From: Candidatus Falkowbacteria bacterium
Lineage (GTDB): Bacteria; Patescibacteriota; Patescibacteriia; Patescibacteriales; UBA12075
Direction of reading: 5' to 3'
Assembly (NCBI GenBank): GCA_003514005.1
Contig: DOSJ01000012.1
Coordinates: 26,508 to 90,507 of the forward strand
Length of the DNA: 64,000 nucleotides
The notes below the pieces were generated by a model. It saw nothing but the letters and a program-made list of their open reading frames with translations. It searched no databases and was not told the DNA's origin. Each line of letters opens with the position of its first letter. Within the stretch, counting starts at the first letter, position 1. Below, piece after piece: positions 12,164 to 64,000 of this stretch. The position numbers and the translations under genes were made by a program.

Positions 12164-12550
12164 ATGCATATAAAGTATCTCTCAATCGACTGGGGTGCCT
12201 CCCGTATCGGCCTAGCTACCGGGGATAGCGAAAACAAAATCGCTATTCCGTTTAAGGTTGCGCGGGATATCAAAGAAGTGCTGGCTGTTATCAAAGAAGA
12301 AGAAATTGACGAAATAATAATCGGCCAGCCGATCAAGATGTCGGGGGAAAAAAATAATCTGACTGCCGGCTTTAATCTATTTCTCGAGTCTTTAAAAAAG
12401 AAAACAGCACTGCCGATTATTTTGGTTGATGAGCGCTTGTCCAGCAAAGGCGCGGACGCGCTGTTTGGCACAAAAAAAACCAAAGCCAAGCAGGACGCTG
12501 TGGCGGCGATGATTATATTGCAGAGTTATTTTGACAACCTTAGTGTGTGA
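12164..12550 (+). CDS. ruvX: Holliday junction resolvase-like nuclease RuvX/YqgF
   Basis: LSIDWGASRIGLATGD N-terminus, 128 aa, ...DERLSS... motif. Confidence 0.85.
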   Translation: MHIKYLSIDWGASRIGLATGDSENKIAIPFKVARDIKEVLAVIKEEEIDEIIIGQPIKMSGEKNNLTAGFNLFLESLKKKTALPIILVDERLSSKGADALFGTKKTKAKQDAVAAMIILQSYFDNLSV

Positions 12551-51812: not shown

Positions 51813-52352
51813 ATGTCAAGATTAGGAAAATTACCAGTCGAATTAAATGCCGGTACTCAAGCGAAAATTGAGAAGGGTTTTATTATAGTAAAAGGGCCAA
51901 AGGGCGAGTTGAAGCAGAAAATGCATGAATTGGTTGATATCCAGATTAGTGAAAAAGAAATTTTAGTTGATGTTAAGAACAAGAAAAGCAAAGACGAGCG
52001 CGCCTTGTGGGGATTGTATCGCAGTTTGGTGTTCAATATGGTCGCGGGCGTTAATACCGGTTTTGAGAAAAAGCTGGAAGTTAACGGCGTCGGTTACAGG
52101 GTGGCCTTGGCTGGAAACAAGCTTAATCTGACTTTGGGTTTTTCCCATCCGGTAGAATATGTTTTGCCAGAAGGCATCAGTGGATTAGTCGAGGCCAATG
52201 TTATCACTATCAAGGGAATAGACAAACAGCTTGTAGGTGAGGTCGCGGCCAATATCAGAAAAATCAAAAAACCGGAACCGTATAAAGGCAAGGGTATTAA
52301 ATATATTGATGAAGTGATCAGAAGAAAAGAAGGCAAGACTGCCGCTAAATAA
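51813..52352 (+). CDS. rplF: 50S ribosomal protein L6
   Basis: MSRLGKLPV...GVGYRV...[10 protein letters not shown]. Confidence 0.96.
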
Positions 52353-52369
52353 TTTTTAAAGTTTTATAT

Positions 52370-52732
52370 ATGAACAAAGAGAAAACAAAAAGAATAAAAC
52401 AAGCTGTTAGAAAGCGAAGAATTAGAGCAAAAATTTCCGGCACGAATGAATGCCCACGTTTGAATGTGTTTAAATCCAATACCGGCTTATTTTTGCAATT
52501 GATTGACGATGCAAAAGGCGTTACTTTGGCAAGCGCCAGCAGCAAGGAAGTAAAGGAAAAAGCGAAAGGCATGAAAAAAACCGAGCTATCAATGCTTTTG
52601 GGAAAAGAATTTGCTGAAAAGATAAAAGCATTAAAAATCGAAAGAATCGTATTTGATCGCGGCGGAAACAGATATCATGGACGGGTCAAGGCTGTGGCCG
52701 ATGGCTTGCGTGAGGGTGGTTTGTCTTTTTAA
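52370..52732 (+). CDS. rplR: 50S ribosomal protein L18
   Basis: [12 protein letters not shown]...RL.VF.SN......FDRGG..YHGRVKA.ADG.REGGL.F. Confidence 0.95.
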
Positions 52733-52816
52733 TTTCTAATTTCAAAATTATAATTTCTAAAAATAAGATTCAATTTAGGCATTATAATTTAGAAATTAGA
52801 AATTGTTAATATATTA
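52733..52816. repeat. Intergenic word hairpin (atttctaa / ttagaaat family)
   Basis: tttaatttctaatttcaaaattataatttctaaaaataagattcaatttaggcattataatttagaaattagaaatt. Confidence 0.6.
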
Positions 52817-52825
52817 TTGTTACAT

Positions 52826-53515
52826 ATGACAGAGGAAAAAAAACAATTAAAAACCGAGAAAGTAGAAACAAAGGTTGAAACTAAATCTGATGTTAAGGCT
52901 GGTACTGCGGAAACAAAGGGCGATACAAATCAATCCGTTTATGCTAAAAAAAGGGCTGAGAAAGGTGGCGGTGCTCGAAAGAATTTTGGCAGAAAAACCG
53001 AGAAAGTTCCGGAAGAGTTTGAGCAGCAAATTGTTGATTTGGCCAGAGTTACCCGCGTTATGGCAGGCGGAAAACGCATGCGTTTTCGAGCTTGTGTCGC
53101 AATAGGCGACAAGAAAGGACGCGTTAGTCTTGGCATTGCCAAGGGCGCTGACGTGACAATCGCCGTAACCAAGGCTGTAACTAATGCAAAGAAAAAAATA
53201 ACCATCGTTCCGATTGTCAATGGCACAATTCCGCATGAAATATTTTGGAAAACCGGAGCCGCTCGCATCATGCTTAAACCGGCACGACGCGGACGCGGTG
53301 TAATCGCGGGCGGAGCAATCCGCATTCTGCTTCGATTGGCAGGAATTCAAAACGTTACAAGCAAGAATTTGGGAACCAGTAATAAGGTAAACGTTGCCAA
53401 ATGCACGATTGAAGCTTTGGAAAATCTGAAAAAGAGCGATAAGCCAAAAAGCGAAAAGAAGGCGGAAGAAGTAAAGGTGGTATTAGATACTGAGAAAAAG
53501 GAAAAAAGCGCGTAA
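52826..53515 (+). CDS. rpsE: 30S ribosomal protein S5 with N- and C-terminal extensions
   Basis: QQIVDLARVTRVMAGGKRMRFRACVAIGDKKGRVSLGIAKG...GRGVIAGGAIR. ATG at 52826. Confidence 0.94.
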   Translation: MTEEKKQLKTEKVETKVETKSDVKAGTAETKGDTNQSVYAKKRAEKGGGARKNFGRKTEKVPEEFEQQIVDLARVTRVMAGGKRMRFRACVAIGDKKGRVSLGIAKGADVTIAVTKAVTNAKKKITIVPIVNGTIPHEIFWKTGAARIMLKPARRGRGVIAGGAIRILLRLAGIQNVTSKNLGTSNKVNVAKCTIEALENLKKSDKPKSEKKAEEVKVVLDTEKKEKSA

Positions 53516-53547
53516 ACAGTTAAATAAAGAATTTTGAAAATAACAAT

Positions 53548-54039
53548 ATGTCATTATCACAACATAAAATAAAAGCAGAGAGCGGTTCGCAGAAAAGCAA
53601 AAAAAGAGTCGGCCGTGGCAATGCGTCCGGACACGGTACGTATAGTACCAGAGGTTTGAAAGGCCAGAAATCCCGTTCCGGCGTCAGCAACCTAAAAAGA
53701 TTGGGTATGCGCCAATTGCTTTTAAAGACTCCGAAAAAACGCGGTTTCACTTCTCTGCAGGAAAAATCTCCGATTGTCGGTTTGGATAATATCAATCTAG
53801 CCTACAAAGACGGCGAAACAGTAACCGTAAAAGATTTGTTTGAAAAAGGTTTGATTGCGACTCCGAAATTGGGCGCGAAAATTCTTGGCAATGGCCAACT
53901 GACTGTTTCAAACCTAACTTTTGAAGGCACAAAAGTCAGCAAGAGCGCGAAAGAACAGATTGACAAGACAAAAGGAAAGATAATCATGAAAAAGAAGGTA
54001 AATAAAGCCGTAAAAAAATCAAAAAAAAGCGAGAAATAA
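53548..54039 (+). CDS. rplO: 50S ribosomal protein L15 (follows S5 directly; no L30 gene between them)
   Basis: KRVGRGNASGHGTYSTRGLKGQKSRSG. Only 32 nt separate it from the rpsE stop. Confidence 0.95.
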   Translation: MSLSQHKIKAESGSQKSKKRVGRGNASGHGTYSTRGLKGQKSRSGVSNLKRLGMRQLLLKTPKKRGFTSLQEKSPIVGLDNINLAYKDGETVTVKDLFEKGLIATPKLGAKILGNGQLTVSNLTFEGTKVSKSAKEQIDKTKGKIIMKKKVNKAVKKSKKSEK

Positions 54040-54132
54040 TCAATTTTCAATAATCGATTTTCTTTGAATGACAATAGTTTGAAAATTAAAAAATTAAAAA
54101 TTCATTGAAAATTAAAAATTGAAAATTAAAAA
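54040..54132. repeat. Intergenic word repeats (ttgaaaattaaaaatt family)
   Basis: gtttgaaaattaaaaaattaaaaattcattgaaaattaaaaattgaaaattaaaaatt. Confidence 0.6.
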
Positions 54133-54141
54133 TTGATTCCT

Positions 54142-55413
54142 ATGCTAGAAAAAATTCTTCAAATTTGGAAAGTCCGCGATTTAAGAAACAAGATTCTTTT
54201 TGTACTCGGAATGCTTGTTATTTTTCGTTTTGCCGCGCATATTCCCGTACCGGGCGTTAATGTGGAGGCTTTGCAGAAATATTTCGCATCCAATCAGATT
54301 ATGGGACTTCTGAATATTTTTTCCGGCGGTAGTATGCAGAATTTTTCTATCGTTATGATGGGTATTGCTCCCTATATTACCTCCTCGATTATTTTCCAAT
54401 TGCTCGGAATGATTATTCCAGCTTTGGAAGAGATGCAAAAAGAAGAATCCGGACGCCAGAAAATAAATATGTGGACGCGCTGGTTGACCGTGCCTTTGGC
54501 TTTTTTACAGGCTTTCGGCATGATTACGATTTTGCGTAATTCATCCGCGGAAATCCTAAGCGATGTCAGCAGGATAGATTTTCTTATGATGTTGACGATA
54601 ATAACAGCCGGTACGATTTTTTTGATGTGGATTGGCGAACTCATATCCGAGAAGAAAATCGGCAACGGCATATCGCTTTTGATTTTTGCCGGCATCGTAT
54701 CCGGCTTGCCCCAAGCTGTCCAGCAGATGGCGGCGCAGTATGACCCTTCCCAGCTTTTCCTTTTGATCGGCTTTGTCGCGATTGCGGTCGTAACCGTTGT
54801 CGGTGTAGTTATCATAACCGAAGGGCAGAGGAATATACCCGTGCAATATGCAAAACAGATTCGCGGCAACCGTATGTTCGGCGGCACAACTACGCATCTG
54901 CCTTTGCGCGTAAACATGGCTGGAGTTATCCCGATAATTTTTGCTATTTCCGTAGTCTTGTTTCCGCCGATGATCGCGCAATTCTTTATCAAGGCGCGAA
55001 CCGCTTGGCTGGCAGCCGGCGCGGAAAAAGTTATTACGCTTTTTAATAACCAGCTTTTTTACGGAATTGCCTATTTTTTACTGGTTTTTCTTTTTACATT
55101 TTTTTATACTGAAGTTATTTTTCACCCGGATCAGATCGCAGAAAATTTACAGAAACAAGGTGGATTTATTCCCGGCATTCGTCCCGGACGGCACACAAGC
55201 GAGTACTTGGCCAATACCACTTATAAGATAATTTTTGTCGGCGCGCTTTTTCTCGGCATTATTGCCATACTGCCATTGGTAATGAAAGCATTCACCGGCG
55301 TTCAATCGCTTGCTATCGGCGGCACCAGCCTCCTGATCGTGGTAGCAGTTGTTATTGAAACCGTTAAACAGATTGAATCGCAATTGACTATGCGGGAGTA
55401 CGAGGGGATGTAG
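54142..55413 (+). CDS. secY: Preprotein translocase subunit SecY
   Basis: ELRNKILFVLGMLVIFRFAAHIPVPG, GI.PYITSSII.QLL, 10-TM layout. ATG at 54142. Confidence 0.96.
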   Translation: MLEKILQIWKVRDLRNKILFVLGMLVIFRFAAHIPVPGVNVEALQKYFASNQIMGLLNIFSGGSMQNFSIVMMGIAPYITSSIIFQLLGMIIPALEEMQKEESGRQKINMWTRWLTVPLAFLQAFGMITILRNSSAEILSDVSRIDFLMMLTIITAGTIFLMWIGELISEKKIGNGISLLIFAGIVSGLPQAVQQMAAQYDPSQLFLLIGFVAIAVVTVVGVVIITEGQRNIPVQYAKQIRGNRMFGGTTTHLPLRVNMAGVIPIIFAISVVLFPPMIAQFFIKARTAWLAAGAEKVITLFNNQLFYGIAYFLLVFLFTFFYTEVIFHPDQIAENLQKQGGFIPGIRPGRHTSEYLANTTYKIIFVGALFLGIIAILPLVMKAFTGVQSLAIGGTSLLIVVAVVIETVKQIESQLTMREYEGM

Positions 55414-55471
55414 GAATTTGGGGATTTACGATTGCCGATTTACGATTGCCGATTTAGGATTTTAGATTTAT

Positions 55472-55500
55472 AAAACAGCCTTGAAAGGGTTGTTTTTTTT
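55472..55500 (+). terminator. Intrinsic terminator after secY
   Basis: aaaacagcc-ttgaaag-ggttgtttttttt: a stem with one G-U pair, followed by T8. Confidence 0.65.
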
Positions 55501-55548
55501 GTGAAGTATTTTTTTGACTATCGGTCATATTTGTGCTAATATTGTAAT

Positions 55549-55851
55549 ATGGTTAAGGAAAAAGTAATAAAAAAAATAAATAAAAAACCCACAATCCATG
55601 ATTTTATCAAGAAGCGGAAGTATTTGATTTGGTGGGTGGCTGATTATGACAAGCTGAATGCCGAGGCGATTGTTGAGGCGACTTTGAATTATGGCGACTG
55701 GGAAGATGTGCAGGAGCTTTTTGCGATTATGGGTATCAAGGAAGTGGCAAAGATATTCCGAAAAAAGTCTAGGCCATCAAAAATGGGTAGGCAGAATTAT
55801 TTTCCGATTACAAAAAATTATTTTACTCTTTATTTTAAAAAGCATGCATAA
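55549..55851 (+). CDS. Small protein, putative antitoxin partner of the downstream NTase
   Basis: 100 aa. Its stop overlaps the next start (ATGCATAA, 8-nt overlap), indicating translational coupling. Confidence 0.55.
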   Translation: MVKEKVIKKINKKPTIHDFIKKRKYLIWWVADYDKLNAEAIVEATLNYGDWEDVQELFAIMGIKEVAKIFRKKSRPSKMGRQNYFPITKNYFTLYFKKHA

Positions 55852-56458
55852 AGTTATTTTAACAGAAAAACAGATCGAGCTTCTGCCATTGGTAAAAAAA
55901 TTTAGGGAAAATTTTATTTTGGTGGGTGGAACAGCAATCGCTTTGCAGATAGGTCATCGACGGTCGATTGATTTTGATATGTTTTCATTTCAGGAATTTA
56001 ACAATTTAAAAATCAGAAAAACGATTATTAAAAACGGTTATAAGATTGGAAAAGTATACAAAGATGAAGAGGGGCAGTTTACTTTTTTTATTGATAATGT
56101 TCAATTTACTTTTTTTCATTATCCTTTTAAAATTGATTTTCCAGAAAAATTAGAAAACATTTTACAAATGCCAGATCTTTTAACCCTTGCAGCGATGAAG
56201 GCATACGCATTGGGTCGACGTGCAAAATGGAAAGATTATGTTGATTTATATTTTATTATAAAAAAATATCATTCGATTGATAAAATAATGGAAAGAGGTA
56301 AAAAAATTTTTAAGAATGAATTTAACGAAAAAATAATTCGCGAAGCGCTTGCTTATTTTGGCGATATTAATTATTCGGAAGAGGTTGAATTTTTGCCAGG
56401 ATTTGCAGTGGATGAAAAAATAATCAAGAAAGCTTTGGTGGAGTTTAGTATTGCATGA
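55844..56458 (+). CDS. Nucleotidyltransferase, AbiEii/AbiGii-toxin-like
   Basis: Started at ATG 55844: MHKVILTEKQIELL...FILVGGTAIALQIGHRRSIDFDMFS (GG...S.D.D NTase motif). Confidence 0.65.
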   Translation: MHKVILTEKQIELLPLVKKFRENFILVGGTAIALQIGHRRSIDFDMFSFQEFNNLKIRKTIIKNGYKIGKVYKDEEGQFTFFIDNVQFTFFHYPFKIDFPEKLENILQMPDLLTLAAMKAYALGRRAKWKDYVDLYFIIKKYHSIDKIMERGKKIFKNEFNEKIIREALAYFGDINYSEEVEFLPGFAVDEKIIKKALVEFSIA

Positions 56459-56490
56459 TTTATTTTAGAATAGAAATAATGTTTTGAAAA

Positions 56491-58731
56491 ATGCTTAAAG
56501 AACCAAAATTCGAGGCAGTCAGAATAAATCCGGACAATCGTGATGAAGAGATATTGTCCGGTTTTACAGTGGAGGAGCGCGCAGAAATTGAGAATAAGCG
56601 AAAGATTTTATCATCTTTGGCTTTTTTTATTGGCAAGGACTTTGAGATTCCCGTGGAATTGAACGAGCCAGGGAAAGGCTGGCATTGGAATTTCAAGAAT
56701 AATATTATTCGGATTGATCCGAAAGATTTGCTTGAGAAGCCGATGGATTATCTGCGCTTCGTTATATCACATGAGGGTGGACATCGGCGAATTTCGCGTA
56801 CGGATTTTATTCCAAAAGAGGTTTGGCAAGAGCCTGGTTTTTCTTTTTTGATGAATTCGATCGAGGATCCGCGCGATAATAATTTTGTGGCCGATGCTTA
56901 TCCGAAATTTCGCGAGCAGATGGAGTCTGCCTATCGGGACGACATGGATATTGAAGGTAAGTCAATCGAGAAGGCCAAGCAAAAACTGGGTTATCAGCCA
57001 CGTTTTATGCAGGCGGGTTTTGAATATATCAAACAGTGGTATCGCGATACGCATGATGACGGGATAGCAGTGACGCAAGAATTGCCAGAAGAAGTGCGCA
57101 CGGTCGTTGAAAAAACAGTTGAGGCGGCCAGAGATTCATGGTGGAAATATCCTTCCAAGGAAGAGGCGGATGCGAGCGAAGATACTATAAGCAAATATGC
57201 AGAGGCTTCATATAAGATAAATTTAAAAAAAGTGTGGCCGGAATTCAAAAAGTTAATAGAGAAAGACCAGGAAGACCAGAAGATGCAAGAATTTTTAAAA
57301 GATATGGAAGTTGAACTGGGTGAAAAACAAAGCGGCGAGCATGGCACTCCAGACAGTTTAAAAGATAAATTAACCGATCAAGAGAAAAAAGAACTAGAGG
57401 AAGCAATTAAAAAAGCGCTTGAAGATGTGAAGGAGAGTAAAAACAACCAAGACTCAGAAAATGACGAATCGCAACCGAATGAGAAAAGCGACGAAGATAA
57501 AGACGGTGATTCTATATCTGGCGAAACATCCTCTGACGTAAAAACTATCGCAGATAAAATGGCTGGCAAGCCATCCTCTACCAAGGCTCCGGACGGCAAA
57601 CCGATTGAACTTGATTCGCTTTCCGATGAATTAAAACAAAAAATCAAAGAATATATTGAGGGTTTGTCGGATGACAAGAAAAAAGAATTGGCAGAAAAAG
57701 CCGGCAAGGCAATTAAGGATTTTGAAGATGAGATAAATAAAGATTTGAAAGGCAAATTTTCTGATGAATCGGGCGAATCAGAGCCAAAAAAGGACAAAGA
57801 TGTCGAAGGTGATAAAAAGGTGGAAGTAGAAAATGATACAAGCGATAAAAATGTAGCGGTTGATTTTAGTAAAAAAGACCAAGAAGAATTCCGAAAAAAC
57901 TTGGAAAATATTTTTATTGAAGCCAAAAACGATCCATATAATAAGGCTTTGAAACAAATCGCGCCGCTGATAGACAATCTGGCAGGCGACTTGCGGGATG
58001 TATTTATCAAAAGAAAACAAGAAAGTAATGAAGCAGAATACAGAAGTGGAAAAAGATGGAATGTGAAAAAGCGCATAAAGGAGATTTCTTCAGGAATTCC
58101 TTTGTTTAAAAGCGAAGCCAGGGAACAGAAAAATAGTGAAAGTGAAGAAAAGGATTACGCACTGACTTTATTAATCGACTTATCTGGTTCGATGCGACAG
58201 AATGGAAAAATAAACGAAGCGTTTAAATCCACAATCCTTTTGGCTGAAGTTTTGCATGACCTTGATATTAAATTTGAGATTGTCGGATTTCAAGATTGTT
58301 TGATAGAATTTAAGAAATTTGAAGCAGATTTGAATAATGAGATGCGGCAAAAAATAAATCAGATGCTTTTGGAAGTTGATGACAGCAATGAAGGTGGCAA
58401 TAATAATTGCGGCGACAATAACGACGGTGAATGTCTTTTGGGTGCTTCGGAACATTTGCAAAAACAAATGGCAGAAAATAAATTTTTGATAGTTTTGTCC
58501 GACGGCGAACCGGCTATGGATTCTAGAAGAAAAAGCTCAAGTCAGCTTGACCGAGAATTAAAAGAAGTAGTAAAATATATAAAAGAGAATACCGAGCAAA
58601 AATTGATAGGCATCGGCTTGTTATCGTCAGCCGTAAAAAAATATTATCCGAATAATATCCCAAATGTTTCAACTAAGGAATTGGCAGAGATTTTAGGTAG
58701 CGTTATTCGCGAAATTATTGAAAATTATTAA
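56491..58731 (+). CDS. HExxH metallopeptidase-like N-domain, long acidic linker and C-terminal vWA domain (MoxR partner)
   Basis: HEGGH at aa 94-98 (nt 56770-56784). About 300 aa of E/D/K-rich low complexity. vWA MIDAS LTLLIDLSGSM (nt ~58176) and LIVLSDGEP. No signal peptide. Confidence 0.75.
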   Translation: MLKEPKFEAVRINPDNRDEEILSGFTVEERAEIENKRKILSSLAFFIGKDFEIPVELNEPGKGWHWNFKNNIIRIDPKDLLEKPMDYLRFVISHEGGHRRISRTDFIPKEVWQEPGFSFLMNSIEDPRDNNFVADAYPKFREQMESAYRDDMDIEGKSIEKAKQKLGYQPRFMQAGFEYIKQWYRDTHDDGIAVTQELPEEVRTVVEKTVEAARDSWWKYPSKEEADASEDTISKYAEASYKINLKKVWPEFKKLIEKDQEDQKMQEFLKDMEVELGEKQSGEHGTPDSLKDKLTDQEKKELEEAIKKALEDVKESKNNQDSENDESQPNEKSDEDKDGDSISGETSSDVKTIADKMAGKPSSTKAPDGKPIELDSLSDELKQKIKEYIEGLSDDKKKELAEKAGKAIKDFEDEINKDLKGKFSDESGESEPKKDKDVEGDKKVEVENDTSDKNVAVDFSKKDQEEFRKNLENIFIEAKNDPYNKALKQIAPLIDNLAGDLRDVFIKRKQESNEAEYRSGKRWNVKKRIKEISSGIPLFKSEAREQKNSESEEKDYALTLLIDLSGSMRQNGKINEAFKSTILLAEVLHDLDIKFEIVGFQDCLIEFKKFEADLNNEMRQKINQMLLEVDDSNEGGNNNCGDNNDGECLLGASEHLQKQMAENKFLIVLSDGEPAMDSRRKSSSQLDRELKEVVKYIKENTEQKLIGIGLLSSAVKKYYPNNIPNVSTKELAEILGSVIREIIENY

Positions 58732-58783
58732 AATATACTAATATATAAAGTATAATGCGAATACTACAAATATTTTAAAAAAT

Positions 58784-59203
58784 ATGGATATTGCATCAAA
58801 AATTAAAAAATTAATCGAAGTTGTCGGTAAATTAGGCGAAATTGGCTTGATTATTATTGAGGATGAAAAAGAGAAAGTTGGAATGCAAAAACAGATTGCC
58901 GCGGAATTAAATCAAGCGGGCGTTGCCAGTGCCAAAAATTATTTGGAAGTCATGGACTTTTTGGAAAAATCCAAAGCTTTTTATTATTTGGAAGAGACGG
59001 ATAAGTTAGACGATTTGATGCTGGAAATAATCGCGGAATACAAAACCGGTATTGTTAGTTTGCAGGATAGAAAAAATAGTACAGGTTTAAGAACGGTCAA
59101 ATTTAATCCAAATGATAACTATTTTATTTTAATCTTAAGCAGGAAGCAAGTCGAGGCATCCGGGCAATTTTTTGAATTTATTGGACCGATAGAGTCTTTT
59201 TGA
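58784..59203 (+). CDS. Hypothetical 139-aa protein, operon member
   Basis: The ORF ends 5 nt before the ATG of the AAA+ gene. No recognisable motif. Confidence 0.55.
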   Translation: MDIASKIKKLIEVVGKLGEIGLIIIEDEKEKVGMQKQIAAELNQAGVASAKNYLEVMDFLEKSKAFYYLEETDKLDDLMLEIIAEYKTGIVSLQDRKNSTGLRTVKFNPNDNYFILILSRKQVEASGQFFEFIGPIESF

Positions 59204-59208
59204 AATAT

Positions 59209-61287
59209 ATGAAAAATGAATCACAATTTAACATGACCACGCTAGTTGAAGCCGAAGATGTACAAGTCAATAAAAAGACTGAGAATCCAGAAAGGAAAGA
59301 AGGTTTAAGTAAGAAATATTTTGAAGAACGCGAAGATGTCTGTGTTTATCTTGGTGTTGAAGTGCCAAAAGGCGAGGGTGGCGATCTGGTGCCGAATAAA
59401 AGCGCTTTTGAAAATTATTATTTAACCAAAGAGGATTATATTTTACGCCGGGAAATTGCTACTTCACTGGTACTGAACAAGCCATTACTGCTTGAAGGTG
59501 GAACCGGTATTGGCAAGACTTCGGCGGTTGCAAATATGTGCGCGGATTTGAATACGAATTATTGCAAGGTGGCATTTGGACGGAATACGACTGTGGAGGA
59601 CGTGATCGGAAACAAAGACGTGGACATTGTCGATGGCAAAGAGGTTTTTCTTTGGCATGATGGCAAACTTTTGAAAGCGATTCGTGAAGGCGGCATTGCT
59701 TTTCTGGATGAATATAATTTCCAAGGGTCAAAGATTGCCGGACATGTTAATCCGATTATCGACGCAATTTTGAATGGATACAAAACAGTTTCTATCCCAG
59801 AAAATAATCACGAGCAAGTTACAGTGCATCCGAATTTTCGCCTTGTGGCGGCACAGAATCCGCCCGGTACGGAAGAAGGACAAGAATTTCCCGGTCGGGA
59901 AGTGCTTGGCTCTGAAACATTTGGACGTTGGGCTTATCATAAAATGCCATTAAAGATGAGCAAAGAAATGCGACTTAATCGGCGCAAAGGAACAATGGGC
60001 AAGAAGATTGGTATTAATATAACCGATTCTGAATTTCGCTTTTTAGGGAATGACATTCCCACTTCGGAATTGATCGATATACCCGGCATGGAGCATTGGG
60101 CGGAAAAGAGCGTGGAAATAATCGAGATGTTGGAAGAAAAATCCAGCGGCGCTGGCAAGGATATGGCCAAAGATCAGCGCCAGAAATTATCATTTAATCC
60201 GCGCTTGGAGCAGGGGATAGATCGCTATGTGGCAAAATTTTATCGTGGTGATGTAAACCAAGTCTGGAGCGATGCTTTGGAATATTTTTTGGTGAATATG
60301 TACAAATCGGATATTGATAAAGAAAAAGTGCGAGAGGCTATCCGGCAGTCGTATTATATTCCGCCCAAGACCGAGTCTAAAAGAAAAGGGTTGGATGAAA
60401 ATGATGAGGAGGATGAAGAAAAAGAAAAACAAGATTTAATCGACAGAATTAAGAAAGCAAAAGGCGAAATTCCCTCTTGGATTGTGGGTGATACTGAAGA
60501 TAGTTCAGTCAAGGCTGAAATCGAAACCGCCCCGTCCACGCCCGAATTCGCAAAAGCCAAACTCGAACTACAAAAATCCGAAACTGAAGCAATCAAAAAA
60601 TACTTTGGTAAAACAGCCGAGGCAATCGAAGTCCCGCCCATCCCTGCCGAAATCACTGCCGAACAATTCGAATTCTGGAAAAATAACAAATTTAAACTCC
60701 ATTATAGTCCAGGCATTGAAATAAAAAAAGACAATGAATTTCCAGGCATGAAGGAGAGATTAAGCGATAATATTTATGAATGGATGAAAAAAGACGACAA
60801 GGGAAAAAGTAAAATCAATATTGATTCCGCTATTTTGCCTAAAGGTTGGATATTGATTGACGAACGTCCAAAACCGCAATATGACAACGGAAACCAGATG
60901 TACGAAGACGATATTTTGGCCCCGGTTTTGGAAGACTTGCGAAAAAAGGGCTTGATAGCGGGTTATAAAGAAAAAGGCTCGCGTAATGTATCAAATGATG
61001 AATTTAATAAACCGGAAGTGAAAGAAACCTTTGCTAAGGCCTTGAAAATTAAACCCGAACAACTGGAACTTCCCAAAGCCGTCTTGTTTAATTATATCGG
61101 CAATAAATCGCATCCAGAATGGGGCAATACAAATACCTGGGAATGGTTTCAAGATGAATATACGAGCGGTAGCCGTTTGAACGGCGGCGATTCGGGCAAC
61201 GGCGGTCTTTCGTACGCGGACTACGCTTCGTCCGGCTTTCGGTTCGACTCCTTGGGTTTCCGTCCTTCGGTTCGTTTCTCTGTTTAA
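59209..61287 (+). CDS. DGR target 1: MoxR-like (AAA_5-type) ATPase fused to a C-terminal C-type-lectin/FGE-like variable domain
   Basis: Walker A LLLEGGTGIGKTS, Walker B IAFLDEYN, sensor RLVAAQNP. C-terminus WEWFQDEYTSGSRLNGGDSGNGGLSYADYASSGFRFDSLGFRPSVRFSV contains VR1. No signal peptide or TM segment. Confidence 0.85.
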   Translation: MKNESQFNMTTLVEAEDVQVNKKTENPERKEGLSKKYFEEREDVCVYLGVEVPKGEGGDLVPNKSAFENYYLTKEDYILRREIATSLVLNKPLLLEGGTGIGKTSAVANMCADLNTNYCKVAFGRNTTVEDVIGNKDVDIVDGKEVFLWHDGKLLKAIREGGIAFLDEYNFQGSKIAGHVNPIIDAILNGYKTVSIPENNHEQVTVHPNFRLVAAQNPPGTEEGQEFPGREVLGSETFGRWAYHKMPLKMSKEMRLNRRKGTMGKKIGINITDSEFRFLGNDIPTSELIDIPGMEHWAEKSVEIIEMLEEKSSGAGKDMAKDQRQKLSFNPRLEQGIDRYVAKFYRGDVNQVWSDALEYFLVNMYKSDIDKEKVREAIRQSYYIPPKTESKRKGLDENDEEDEEKEKQDLIDRIKKAKGEIPSWIVGDTEDSSVKAEIETAPSTPEFAKAKLELQKSETEAIKKYFGKTAEAIEVPPIPAEITAEQFEFWKNNKFKLHYSPGIEIKKDNEFPGMKERLSDNIYEWMKKDDKGKSKINIDSAILPKGWILIDERPKPQYDNGNQMYEDDILAPVLEDLRKKGLIAGYKEKGSRNVSNDEFNKPEVKETFAKALKIKPEQLELPKAVLFNYIGNKSHPEWGNTNTWEWFQDEYTSGSRLNGGDSGNGGLSYADYASSGFRFDSLGFRPSVRFSV
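61165..61270 (+). repeat. DGR variable repeat 1 (VR1)
   Basis: 106 bp aligning without gaps to the TR. There are 10 differences, all at TR adenines. Confidence 0.92.
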
Positions 61288-61517
61288 ATCGGATCTTTGG
61301 TTTTTTGGCCTTTGGAAATTTTATTTAACACAACATGGAGCTAATGTAGCCGGTTTGTATTATGCAAATGACGGTTCGCTCCAAAAAAGAGAAACGACTT
61401 GTTTTGGTTTGACGCGGGAAAAATGTCCAGGTATTGAGCGTGTACATTTTATACAAGTGCGACCATCCGACAAAACGGATCGAAGCACCCTTGCCAAAGA
61501 TGGACCAAGGCAAAGAA

Positions 61518-61623
61518 AGCGGTAACCGTTTGAACGGCGGCGATTCGGACAACGGCGGTCTTTCGAACGCGGACTACGATTCGTCCGGCAATCGGAACGA
61601 CAACTTGGGTTTCCGTCCTTCGG
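61518..61623 (+). repeat. DGR template repeat (TR)
   Basis: Intergenic 106-bp copy of the VRs with 21 adenines, mostly in AAC/AAT/GAC codons when read in the target frame. The 71-aa ORF-track ORF over it is not a gene. Confidence 0.92.
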
Positions 61624-61635
61624 CCGTATCTCAAA

Positions 61636-61668
61636 AGAATTCCGCTTAATCGGCGGAATTCTTTTTTT
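61636..61668. terminator. Perfect 10-bp hairpin (agaattccgc/gcggaattct) plus T7, 13 nt downstream of the TR and overlapping the avd stop
   Basis: Stem at 61636-61645 / 61653-61662, 7-nt loop, T-run 61662-61668. The avd stop codon (61646-61648) lies in the loop. Confidence 0.7.
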
Positions 61669-62044
61669 GTGGATTTTTTATCCAACCGCCAAGTTGGCAT
61701 CCGATTTCTTGTATTTGAATTTGAAGTAATAAATATTCTTTTTCTTCGATTGCACTTGAATCTTTTAAAAGTCGAATGATTACTTTTAACAAATCAAGCT
61801 GATCACTGGCTGTGTTTAACAAGTTTATCCGTTCGTAATTATATTTTCGGTTGGCCTTGAATAGCAAAATAAAAAAATCAACAATCAAATTATCGCATTT
61901 TGTACCCAAACAGTAACGATCGATTTTTGGCAATGTTTTGGAGATCAAATGCCAACTTAGATAAAAATCATAAGTCTTATGAATAATCGGAGCGCTAAAA
62001 CTTGGCTGGGGGGGGGGGGCATAATAGTAGATATCAAAAATCAA
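61646..62044 (-). CDS. avd: Avd-like accessory variability determinant (four-helix-bundle protein)
   Basis: ...LPKIDRYCLGTKCDNLIVDFFILLFKA...LLNTASDQLDLLKVIIRLL...EKEYLLLQIQIQEIGCQLGGWIK matches the pattern of DGR-associated four-helix-bundle proteins. Confidence 0.75.
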   Translation of the reverse strand: MIFDIYYYAPPPQPSFSAPIIHKTYDFYLSWHLISKTLPKIDRYCLGTKCDNLIVDFFILLFKANRKYNYERINLLNTASDQLDLLKVIIRLLKDSSAIEEKEYLLLQIQIQEIGCQLGGWIKNPQKKNSAD

Positions 62045-63063
62045 AATGCAAAATTGAATGCAATGAAATTTTTGAAGAAATTATTTGTTTAGAAAATTTA
62101 TTCGCAGCTTGGCGTGAATTTTATAAAGGGAAAAAGCAGAAAAAAGATGTCGAGGAATTTTCCGTAAATTTAGAAGATAATATTTTTGCGTTGCACGATG
62201 ATTTGAAAAACGGTAATTATCAACACTCTCAGTATGCATCATTTTTTGTCTGTGACCCAAAATTGCGACATATCCACAAAGCCTGTGTCCGTGATCGGCT
62301 TTTGCATAACGCGATTGTTCGCATTGTTGAACCAGTTTTTGAAAGAATATTTATTTTTGATTCATATTCTTCGCGAAAAAACAAAGGAACACATAAGGCC
62401 ATTGAAAGATTTAAAAAATTTGCTTGGGCATTGTCGCAAAATAATACAAAAACGGTTTGGGTGTTAAAATGTGATATTCGGAAATATTTTAACTCGGTGA
62501 ATCATGAAATTTTAATGAATTTGTTAAAAAAAAGAATATTTGATGATAAATTAATACATCTTCTCGAAAATATAATAAAAAGCTATAATAAAGAAGAAGA
62601 GAAAGGAATTCCCCTGGGAAATTTGACTAGTCAATTGTTTTCCAATGTTTATTTGAATGAATTGGATGATTTTATTAAAAGGAAACTTGGTTTTAACCAC
62701 TATACCCGATATGCCGATGATTTTCTTTTGGTAAGTAAAAGAAAATCAGAACTTTTGGCTATATTGGAAGATATTGGAAAATTTTTAGAAGATAAGTTGA
62801 AATTGTCATTGCACCCCAAAAAAGTAATAATTCAAAAATGGCATCAGGGTGTTGATTTTCTTGGTTATAAGATTTTTCCACACCATATATTATTACGGAC
62901 AAAAACCAAAAAGCGAATTTTAATGAAAATGAAAATATTTAAGAAAAAGTTAATATCTGGAAACATAAATAAAAATAATTTTGAGCAATCCAAAAATTCG
63001 TATTTGGGAATATTAAAACACTGTTTTGGACACAAAATAGAATGTATACTAAAAAATAATTAA
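62002..63063 (+). CDS. DGR reverse transcriptase
   Basis: RT motifs VLKCDIRKYFNSVNH, GIPLGNLTSQLFSNVYLNELD (the DGR-typical SQ motif), YTRYADDFLLVS (YxDD), GVDFLGYKIF. The start is uncertain: the only canonical in-frame start is TTG at 62002, upstream of the G12 tract. Confidence 0.9.
   Translation: MAGGGGHNSRYQKSKCKIECNEIFEEIICLENLFAAWREFYKGKKQKKDVEEFSVNLEDNIFALHDDLKNGNYQHSQYASFFVCDPKLRHIHKACVRDRLLHNAIVRIVEPVFERIFIFDSYSSRKNKGTHKAIERFKKFAWALSQNNTKTVWVLKCDIRKYFNSVNHEILMNLLKKRIFDDKLIHLLENIIKSYNKEEEKGIPLGNLTSQLFSNVYLNELDDFIKRKLGFNHYTRYADDFLLVSKRKSELLAILEDIGKFLEDKLKLSLHPKKVIIQKWHQGVDFLGYKIFPHHILLRTKTKKRILMKMKIFKKKLISGNINKNNFEQSKNSYLGILKHCFGHKIECILKNN
62008..62019. repeat. G12/C12 homopolymer inside the overlapping 5' ends of avd (PPPQ) and the RT ORF (GGGG)
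   Basis: Counted directly: 12 consecutive G on the plus strand. Confidence 0.95.
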
Positions 63064-63069
63064 AATATT

Positions 63070-64000
63070 ATGCCAAAAGAACAATTTGAAATGACAATTC
63101 CACCAACGCCGGACTCTGCTGACGTGGCAGAAATCAGAAAAGAACAAAAACAAAGAGCCAGTGAATTGAATAGTGAAATAAAAAATATCCAAGGCGAAAA
63201 AAGTCTTGAGGATTTAAGCATTGACGAGCTTCGGAAAGTGCTGGCGTTATATGAGGATATAAAAAACATTGCGACAGCTGAAACCGTTCCATCCACTCCT
63301 GAATTTGCTCAAGCCAAACTCGAACTGCAAAAATCCGAAACTGAAGCCGTGAGTAAATATTTTGGTAAAAAAATTGAAGTCCTGCCAGTTCCCACCCAAA
63401 TCACAGTTGAACAATTCGAGTTTTGGAAACAAAACCAATTTGAACTTCATTATTGCCCAGGCACAGAAATAAAAGAGGACAGCAAGTTTCCAGGTATGAA
63501 AAAAGGACTAGACGAAGACATATATAAACGGATAAAAGACGGAAGCATTACCCCTGACTCTGCCACCTTGCCAAAAGGCTGGATACTGATTGATGCACGG
63601 CCCAAACCGAATTATGACAATGGCGACCAGATGTATGAAAATGATATTTTGGAAGAGGTTATGGAAAAGTTAAGAATTGCCGGTCAAATCGAAGATTTTA
63701 AACACAAAGGCTCCAGATTCAATTGTTCCTGGGATGAACTAGACAAAGAAATAGTAAAAAAAGCAGTCGCTGAAGTATTAAAAGTCAGACCGGAACAATT
63801 AGAAATGCCAAGTGCCGCTCTATTTAATTATATCGGCAATAAAACCCATTCCGAATGGGGTAAAACAGATACTTGGGAATGGTTTCAGGACAAATTTAAA
63901 AGCGGTTACCGTTTGGACGGCGGTGATTCGGACGACGGCGGTCTTTCGGACGCGGGCTACGCTTCGTCCGGCGATCGGTACGACTACTTGGGTTTCCGTC
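63070..64000 (+). CDS. DGR target 2 (3'-truncated by the window end): stand-alone paralog of the variable C-terminal module
   Basis: Hand translation from ATG 63070: MPKEQFEMTIPPTPDSADVAEIRKEQ...STPEFAQAKLELQKSETEAV...WEWFQDKFKSGYRLDGGDSDDGGLSDAGYASSGDRYDYLGFR. About 235 aa are collinear with the C-terminus of target 1. Not in the ORF track because no stop codon falls inside the window. Confidence 0.85.
   Translation, partial: MPKEQFEMTIPPTPDSADVAEIRKEQKQRASELNSEIKNIQGEKSLEDLSIDELRKVLALYEDIKNIATAETVPSTPEFAQAKLELQKSETEAVSKYFGKKIEVLPVPTQITVEQFEFWKQNQFELHYCPGTEIKEDSKFPGMKKGLDEDIYKRIKDGSITPDSATLPKGWILIDARPKPNYDNGDQMYENDILEEVMEKLRIAGQIEDFKHKGSRFNCSWDELDKEIVKKAVAEVLKVRPEQLEMPSAALFNYIGNKTHSEWGKTDTWEWFQDKFKSGYRLDGGDSDDGGLSDAGYASSGDRYDYLGFR
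63901..64000 (+). repeat. DGR variable repeat 2 (VR2; first 100 of 106 bp visible)
   Basis: 10 differences from the TR. Nine are at TR adenines and one is a synonymous C->T (GGC->GGT). Confidence 0.9.

Follow-up and report, generated by a model that had tools for sequence, protein, structure and literature searches.

A free-standing gene of Candidatus Falkowbacteria as the probable second target of a diversity-generating retroelement

Does the last open reading frame (ORF) of a 64,000-nucleotide (nt) stretch of Candidatus Falkowbacteria DNA (contig DOSJ01000012.1, positions 26,508 to 90,507 of the forward strand; hereafter, the window) encode a second target of a diversity-generating retroelement (DGR), or does it only resemble one? 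The ORF, called target 2 here, follows the gene of the DGR reverse transcriptase (RT), runs off the window and resembles the C-terminal part of the known target, target 1. Based on the analyses described below, target 2 is very probably a genuine, intact second target of a chromosomal DGR of the type found in the Candidate Phyla Radiation (CPR). The main positive evidence that it is a real homing site is the pattern in which two variable repeats (VRs) have been rewritten from one template repeat (TR). The components on which this argument depends are the following.

59200-61287 (+): target 1, 695 amino acids (aa), with an AAA_5 domain at residues 95-226 and a C-terminal variable module at residues ~445-695
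61165-61270 (+): VR1, 106 nt aligned to the TR
61518-61623 (+): TR, the source of both adenine-specific mismatch patterns
61646-62044 (-): avd accessory gene (bAvd), between TR and RT; Pfam bAvd 1.4e-14
62002-63063 (+): DGR RT, 353 aa, with a TTG start at 62002; Pfam RVT_1 2.6e-28
63070-64000 (+): target 2, the probable second target gene, with its stop at window-equivalent 64021-64023; from the ORF, contig L001 and BLASTP
63901-64000 (+): VR2, which runs on to window-equivalent 64006 and has the same 3′ end as VR1

The RT contains LGNLTSQ (LGxxxSQ) and YADD motifs, which we take to mark it as an RT of the DGR type, and is 47-64% identical to the RTs of 80 loci that share the cassette order. 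As a first-pass annotation of the sequence had stated, the ATG of target 2 at 63070 lies 6 nt past the RT stop (the RT ORF ends at 63063), and the frame is open through 64000. The missing end was supplied by L001, a 99.5-kb contig retrieved by RT protein look-up and identical to window positions 52002-64000. On L001 the frame gains 7 codons followed by TAA, giving a full protein of 317 aa whose C-terminus, ...GFRPSVRFSV, is the same as that of target 1; a frameshift or stop that would wreck the VR2 frame, the danger raised in that annotation, is thus absent. L001 extends 9 kb beyond target 2, where ABC-transporter genes are found. The exact 317-aa sequence is present on 16 contigs, with no target 2 variants among the protein clusters. 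In GenBank, the exact proteins come from Candidatus Falkowbacteria metagenome-assembled genomes (MAGs) of the GW2011 groundwater series, and target 2 is labelled 'hypothetical'.

Five more assemblies, drawn from different samples (MEGAHIT, JGI, ggKbase, Logan), were compared with the L001 contig. The six are 100% identical over 7.1 kb except for a poly-G tract, and the RT-target 2 junction is reproduced in all of them, against the assembly artefact that the first-pass annotation had named as a possible refutation. Target 1 protein variants comprise start-codon differences, one contig-end partial and one VR1/TR chimera. The partial, P0013 (HAM88182.1, 662 aa), ends at the VR at a contig end and carries S658N at the first variable codon; the chimera, P0012 (HAY12252.1, 743 aa), crosses from VR1 into TR sequence and continues past it. 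Both come from public MAGs and are assembly casualties of the VR/TR repeat. That a collapsed or chimeric contig end produced a false second copy is scarcely credible, for although the feature lies at the window end and VR/TR repeats do misassemble, as in the P0012 chimera, the order RT-target 2-ABC transporter is the same in all six assemblies and the copy is just 72-75% identical to target 1, unlike a collapsed repeat.

VR1 differs from the TR at 10 positions, all of them TR adenines (10/21 adenines and 0/85 other sites; hypergeometric P 1e-8). VR2 also carries 10 mismatches, 9 of which fall on TR adenines (9/21, against 1/85 other sites; P 8e-7), bringing the pooled count at adenines to 19/20. 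The TR core pattern occurs in exactly 3 copies in the window versus 0 expected from shuffles, and an exact-pattern scan of metagenome contigs found no further copies of it. Of the 21 TR adenines, 8 are at first, 13 at second and 0 at third positions of codons in the VR frame; 14 codons are diversifiable, and roughly 1e12 protein variants are permitted. VR2 lies at the 3′ end of the 317-aa ORF and ends 17 nt ahead of the stop. The diversified residues read in the first-pass annotation were exact (S, G, Y, A, F, F, S in VR1 and Y, D, D, D, G, A, D, Y, Y in VR2, where the TR encodes SGNRLNGGDSDNGGLSNADYDSSGNRNDNLGFRPS), and its central proposal also holds: one TR matches two VRs, with independent adenine-specific patterns, in differently built proteins, one fused to AAA_5 and the other free-standing. 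Additionally, VR1 and VR2 share a 3′ junction, CTTGGGTTTCCGTCCTTCGG followed by TTCGTTTCTCTGT (through ...CCTTCGG TTCGTTTCTCTGT), where the TR continues CCGTATCTC. The same contrast between VR and TR is seen in a related locus, L006, and the shared junction would function as the initiation of mutagenic homing (IMH) site, with its TR counterpart as IMH*.

The significance of this pattern depends on how far the two genes have otherwise diverged. The collinearity of target 2 with residues ~445-695 of target 1 was borne out by BLASTP (61% identity, target 1 407-695 with target 2 43-317, E 8e-107). Strong similarity begins at STPEF (target 1 ~447, target 2 ~75), and from there target 2 residues ~75-317 are 61-65% identical to target 1 residues ~445-695. 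The DNA likeness that had been noted is likewise recognisable, at 74.7% over 887 nt (60523-61405 versus 63280 to window-equivalent 64141), and continues ~120 nt beyond the stop codons. Outside the VRs, the module scaffolds differ at 28.5% of DNA sites (25%, 15% and 45% at codon positions 1, 2 and 3). Of the 'recent duplication' suggested earlier, the paralogy stands, while 'recent' is too simple for scaffolds that are 28% diverged, with third positions at 45%.

Between VR1 and VR2, 11 adenine sites differ and only 1/85 other sites does. At the scaffold rate, 85 sites would show one change or none with a probability of 1.4e-11; the figure is 1.8e-5 at the rate of second codon positions, which are the slowest. 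Because 84/85 non-adenine sites of VR2 equal the TR despite 28.5% divergence of the scaffold, both VRs must have been overwritten from the TR after the divergence. VR1 and VR2 have each been rewritten from the TR independently, after the two genes diverged. It is very improbable, then, that VR2 is TR-like merely through copying of target 1 and was never a homing site. The genes are clearly paralogous, and the duplicated unit runs beyond the stop codon, as such copying would have it; but divergence would then be expected at all sites as in the scaffold, the imbalance between adenine and other sites has a P of about 1e-11, and the VR2 substitutions are unlike those of VR1 at most codons.

Three further elements were located in the non-coding DNA around the repeats.

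61294-61315 (+): three YTTG(G) repeats with 7-8 nt spacing, just past the target 1 stop, from the sequence
61337-61402 (+): predicted hairpin GGAGC...GCTCC (61337-61382) and conserved tail AAAAAAGAGAAACGACTTGT, from RNA folding; ~180 nt ahead of the TR
61633-61668 (+): predicted 14-bp hairpin with a U-run, terminator-shaped, ~10 nt past the TR (-18.2 kcal/mol, z -6.0)

A YTTG array matching the first of these lies behind VR2, beyond the window (L001 12028-12048). In 49 VR flanks of related DGRs (L001-L101), YTTG occurs on average 2.98 times per 60 nt versus 0.79 in the background, with 7-8 nt as the dominant spacing, and at least three repeats are present in 63% of the flanks versus 4% of background windows. 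The array is a candidate target-recognition element. A YTTG(G/A) array stands behind almost every VR of this DGR clade, where the canonical GC hairpin would be.

The hairpin upstream of the TR is of the type GGCUAAUG-stem-UACGG loop-stem-CGCC, and its conserved tail is AAGAAACUGCUUG-like. It is found once per element, ~180 nt upstream of the TR, in most of the related loci that were inspected, and it is absent behind the second VRs of L006, L025, L027 and L029. In a 13-sequence alignment of the subtype, to which the window variant does not belong, compensatory changes were observed at 9/13 pairs; Rfam gave no family match for the DGR region or the window, this hairpin included. We considered and rejected a role as a VR-linked homing element like the BPP-1 cruciform, since there is one hairpin per element, it lies upstream of the TR and it is absent after other second VRs. 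It is probably the predicted 5′ domain of the TR RNA, and a second copy, co-duplicated with target 2, is located after VR2 (window-equivalent 64073-64140; L001 12072-12140). Because this hairpin is elsewhere found only upstream of TRs, its presence after VR2 places the origin of the 3′ ~890 bp of target 2 on the target 1/TR side, which indicates that the target 1 locus is the source from which this segment (module, VR and 3′ flank) was copied or converted.

In a neighbour-joining tree of the module scaffold, target 1, target 2 and P0002 form one clade in 191/200 bootstraps. P0002 is a short homologue from another organism and opens with MPKEQF like target 2, which further qualifies the idea of a recent duplication. 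We rejected orthology of the window pair with the pair of L006: besides that clade, the L006 modules are sisters to each other in 0/200 bootstraps. The ATPase parts of the window and L006 targets have only the Walker A region in common.

The third element, the terminator-shaped hairpin past the TR, overlaps the avd stop on the opposite strand; it was found by direct folding and missed by a simple terminator scan. An equivalent hairpin lies past the L006 TR (12164-12198, z -5.8). As such a hairpin stands straight after the TR, the TR RNA is probably a short, self-contained transcript and not a TR-spacer-RT transcript.

What kind of protein does target 2 encode? Its first ~75 aa are unrelated to target 1, as had been noticed at first reading, and are predicted to form helices at 16-41 and 51-69 that run into a helix at 77-98; the variable module, ~240 aa long, comes next. 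The last ~35 residues of the module are the diversified part and form the diversified surface. Target 2 has no hydrophobic 19-mer (Kyte-Doolittle maximum 0.39) and is predicted to be a soluble protein with no hydrophobic segment.

The fold of the module was approached by several searches. Eight module members had no Pfam match at E up to 10, nor had the C-terminal 65 aa. An AlphaFold model of the module reached a predicted template modelling score (pTM) of 0.79, with the VR under 50 in the predicted local distance difference test (pLDDT), and Foldseek returned nothing with E below 0.5 from PDB and BFVD. A 111-sequence profile gave a weak match to 5aoh_A over the fragment N.sEW...GG.S...iGFR (E 0.028), and the same fragment weakly matched the C-terminal end of FGE-sulfatase, at an E of 0.0027 that is below the cut-off. 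The start of the module (profile positions 31-100, target 1 ~455-500), a helix followed by 'FGK.IEVPP.P.EIT', weakly matched the bacterial ribosomal protein uS2 at E 0.04-0.8, a likeness that is probably due to chance. CPR DGRs have been reported beside, or targeting, ribosomal-protein-like genes.

One further feature bears on the present activity of the element.

62008-62019 (+): poly-G tract, G12 in the window, where the 5′ ends of avd and RT overlap head to head, from assembly comparison

Over 7.1 kb the six assemblies differ nowhere but in this tract, which is G12 in the window; three assemblies have G13, and one has G19. With G13 or G19, but not with G12, a conserved ATG at 61979 shares the frame of the RT. 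At the same spot, a run of at least 8 G (9 to 11 each time) was found in 37/74 related loci, and these runs account for most of the 50 long G/C runs within 557 kb. In 32/45 related cases, the conserved ATG upstream does not share the RT frame, and near-identical L006-type contigs have tract lengths of G10, G11 and G12. Other poly-G positions are 3030 in L019, L020 and L021, 3030 in L022, 12559 in L006 and 766 in L016. The tract could be a slippage or phase switch acting on RT/Avd expression, or it could be homopolymer assembly noise; we found no paper connecting DGRs with such poly-G tracts.

Several observations weigh against our interpretation of target 2. VR1 and VR2 are invariant in the six consensus assemblies, so that no ongoing diversification is seen, and RT expression in the G12 state may be low or off. 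One mismatch of VR2, the synonymous C>T that turns GGC into GGT (Gly), is not at an adenine. Neither VR1 nor VR2 is followed by a GC-rich hairpin with a GRNA loop, which the Bordetella phage element requires 4-34 bp past the VR; the related L014 and L003 do carry a GC hairpin after the VR. A C-type lectin (CLec) fold found no significant match for the module by Pfam, PDB profile search or Foldseek. Second targets can decay: the counterpart short target of L006-L011 is frameshifted in its VR, identically on 10 contigs, and is either decayed or misassembled. Finally, the sole tie of target 2 to an ATPase and its vWA-domain neighbour, described below, is gene neighbourhood.

Some of these points would fit a relic, in which VR2 was diversified in the past, the element or the target is now inactive and target 2 is a fixed paralogue heading to decay. 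We consider this possible but somewhat unlikely. The invariance of VR2, together with the exact target 2 protein on all 16 contigs, would be expected of a relic, but VR1 is just as invariant, so that VR2 is not singled out, and low-frequency variants are invisible in consensus assemblies from one aquifer. Similarly, G12 leaves the conserved ATG out of the RT frame in the window, but the RT ORF is intact, and the G13 and G19 variants restore the ATG frame. The frameshifted target of L006-L011 offers a precedent for decay; the target 2 ORF, however, is intact, as are the IMH-like junction and the YTTG array, and the identity of VR2 to the TR at all but one non-adenine site places the last rewriting as recent relative to the divergence of the scaffold.

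The remaining question is whether target 2 has anything to do with target 1 beyond a shared TR. A profile search with the module recovered 638 clusters at 50% identity, of which 219 had E<=1e-30. All genome matches of the module were Patescibacteria. Among the best 150 cluster representatives, 132 are no longer than 400 aa (median 303), and AAA_5 was found in 8/10 long family members scanned. Free-standing is thus the common form of this module family, not a derived oddity. At least one adenine-biased VR was detected in 45 of the 80 loci with related RTs, and pairing could be judged in 7 loci that have AAA-fused targets and enough flank. In five of these seven, a free paralogue of the fused module has its own VR and the same TR.

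L001 (window locus): free copy 65% identical to the fused module
L006: free copy 45% identical to the fused module
L025: free copy 89% identical to the fused module
L027: free copy 92% identical to the fused module
L029: free copy 57% identical to the fused module

In L006 (8031-8899; Parcubacteria; the same in L007-L012), the short target has a 1-nt insertion in the VR and is truncated to 272 aa. The modules of L025, L027 and L029 belong to an unrelated family, of the YTWTKRR...GVSFSRSL type, and the variable modules on the targets of L025, L027 and L080 are not recognised by the profile of the window's module. The ATPase parts of L025, L027 and L080 are nevertheless 30-37% identical to target 1 (about 37% for L025 and L027). 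The swapped-module loci span L025 2-5245, L027 1642-5332, L029 1566-5219 and L080 535-5195. By these comparisons, the variable module has been exchanged on a conserved ATPase-vWA core, with the two-form layout kept. That the module was swapped while core and layout were kept argues for a selected design, and the fused plus free pairing looks maintained by design rather than accidental.

Target 2 might instead be an autonomous binder, unconnected to the ATPase-vWA pair, for which a shared TR is merely economical. This is quite possibly correct, though we lean slightly the other way. Most family members are free-standing, many of them in tandem arrays without an ATPase, RT or TR nearby (L013, L015, L018, L003), and the gene arrangement links target 2 transcriptionally with the RT rather than with target 1. 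Fused plus free pairs in 5/7 loci, including those of an unrelated module family, suggest, on the other hand, a selected pairing, and the tree described above unites the scaffolds of targets 1 and 2 (191/200 bootstraps). The arrays themselves contain 2-4 free-standing members (L013 6854-10870, between fusA and tuf; L015 189-3131; L018 5195-7135; L003 10001-10894). No RT or TR was seen on the available stretches of these four loci, and the arrayed members could be remote targets or non-diversified relatives.

The partners with which target 2 might act are target 1 and its upstream neighbours, where von Willebrand factor A (vWA) is the defining domain of the first.

56491-58731 (+): vWA-domain protein, 746 aa, upstream of the ATPase-fused target; Pfam CobT_C 9e-18, VWA 4e-5
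58784-59203 (+): 139-aa ORF overlapping the target 1 start, called as a gene in all assemblies

In target 1, the AAA_5 match is strong (Pfam 1.4e-16), with Walker A (GGTGIGKT) and Walker B (FLDE) intact; a bpMoxR match (0.003, 17 bits) is under the 27-bit cut-off. GenBank labels this protein 'Midasin' (KKQ54180.1). In L025 and L080, full-length homologues of the vWA protein (48-50% identity) immediately precede the AAA-fused DGR targets. The 139-aa ORF had no Pfam match. Further upstream, an AbiEii-type nucleotidyltransferase toxin gene (55691-56458) and its small upstream partner of ~100 aa (the pair at L001 3548-4457) adjoin the DGR system, placed between the ribosomal-protein/SecY operon and the vWA gene. 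A search with Pfam only gave no VMAP/iSTAND, peptidase or TIR domain for the genes between 55691 and window-equivalent 66000, and a tRNA search of the window found none.

By analogy with the Bordetella phage element, the following course of events may be proposed. A non-coding TR RNA, from roughly 61337 to 61668, would comprise the 5′ hairpin, the TR and the terminator hairpin. The RT-Avd pair would reverse-transcribe it, misincorporating opposite adenines, and the resulting cDNA would replace VR1 or VR2, with homing guided by the GC-rich 3′ junction, which is the same in the two VRs, and probably also by the YTTG array behind them. Target 1 might then tether the module to a MoxR-like AAA_5 ATPase that acts with the adjacent vWA protein, while target 2 might be a free module with a second, independently diversified specificity, acting alone or in trans with the ATPase-vWA machine.

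A more general proposal is that AAA-vWA systems linked to CPR DGRs conserve a design in two parts, a tethered and a free copy of one variable module, in which the free copy, with its own TR-written specificity, acts in trans and the slippage-prone poly-G tract gates the element. We put it forward as speculation and think it unlikely to be right. It is allowed by the recurrence of the pairing in 5/7 loci and two unrelated module families, by the poly-G tract as the sole polymorphism in 7 kb and by the presence of the tract in half of 74 loci with the upstream ATG mostly out of frame. Action in trans would include, for example, co-assembly on the AAA ring or the vWA partner, or competition for ligand.

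Much of this architecture has precedents. In the CPR set of Wu et al. 2018 (PMC5758913), the B3 order was reported for 90% of elements and two targets for about 13% of DGRs; CPR VRs were unclassifiable, and targets of class UVR4 match the AAA domain of Midasin, which is also the GenBank label of target 1. The window locus resembles the CPR DGRs of Wu et al. 2018 (architecture B3, PMC5758913) and of Roux et al. 2021 (clade 2, PMC8144416) in its order target-TR-avd (opposite strand)-RT, in its chromosomal location in a groundwater CPR genome, in targets without transmembrane or recognisable domains and in VRs that are unclassifiable by sequence. Its second target, however, comes after the RT, a position for which the 80 related loci offer a single parallel, the VR downstream of the RT in L096. 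As cited in PMC10907252, Paul et al. 2017 described a C-terminal variable module on an AAA ATPase as the commonest recognisable CPR target architecture. Target 1 fits the AAA-ATPase-fused CLec targets in CPR that are mentioned there, and target 2 is a free copy of the module, for which the searches above gave no significant C-type lectin match.

Differential diversification of two targets of one DGR has been documented by Dore et al. 2024 (PMC10907252), who also described DGRs of further clades in which a short and a long target stand beside a MoxR ATPase. Thiohalocapsa DGR 8 (clade 5A, multicellular bacteria, PMC10907252) is alike in that one DGR serves two differentially diversified targets. 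However, it belongs to another RT clade and other organisms, its ATPase is a separate gene and its CLec domain is recognisable, whereas in the window the ATPase is fused to one target. Compared with the clade 5A loci, no VMAP, peptidase or TIR effector genes were found beside the window locus. Kaur et al. 2020 (PMC7159879) described MoxR-vWA ternary conflict systems with DGR-diversified FGS domains, which share with our locus an AAA ATPase, a vWA protein and an RT-diversified binding domain. In those systems the variable FGS domain is on the vWA component, whereas in the window the module is on the ATPase and also free; they have a third, VMAP component, for which there was no match at the window locus, where the bpMoxR match is sub-threshold.

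Guo et al. 2011 (PMC3240598) showed that BPP-1 needs a GC-rich hairpin/cruciform with a 4-nt GRNA loop 4-34 bp past the VR. BPP-1 and the window element are alike in adenine-specific transfer from TR to VR, a VR at the 3′ end of the ORF, a GC-rich junction that distinguishes VR from TR, and the pair of Avd and RT. In contrast, BPP-1 has a single target and avd on the same strand, a GRNA hairpin after the VR and a long spacer between TR and RT; the window has two targets and avd on the opposite strand, a YTTG array in place of the GRNA hairpin and a terminator-like hairpin directly after the TR. Multi-target CPR DGRs, the TR-avd(reverse)-RT order and AAA-fused targets have thus already been described, and target 2 is an example of them. 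New here are the hairpin in the duplicated ~890-bp unit and the fused plus free pairing in 5/7 related loci.

The locus is a clean test case for DGR activity on two genes, with scaffolds that have diverged by 28% and VRs held to one TR; retrohoming homogenises the non-adenine sites in both. The poly-G tract, the YTTG array and the covarying hairpin upstream of the TR may bear more generally on DGR regulation and targeting. That fused and free copies recur together suggests that they are functionally related, and if the pairing is functional, it would show how ultra-small, host-dependent bacteria use intracellular hypervariable binders with an ATPase-vWA machine.

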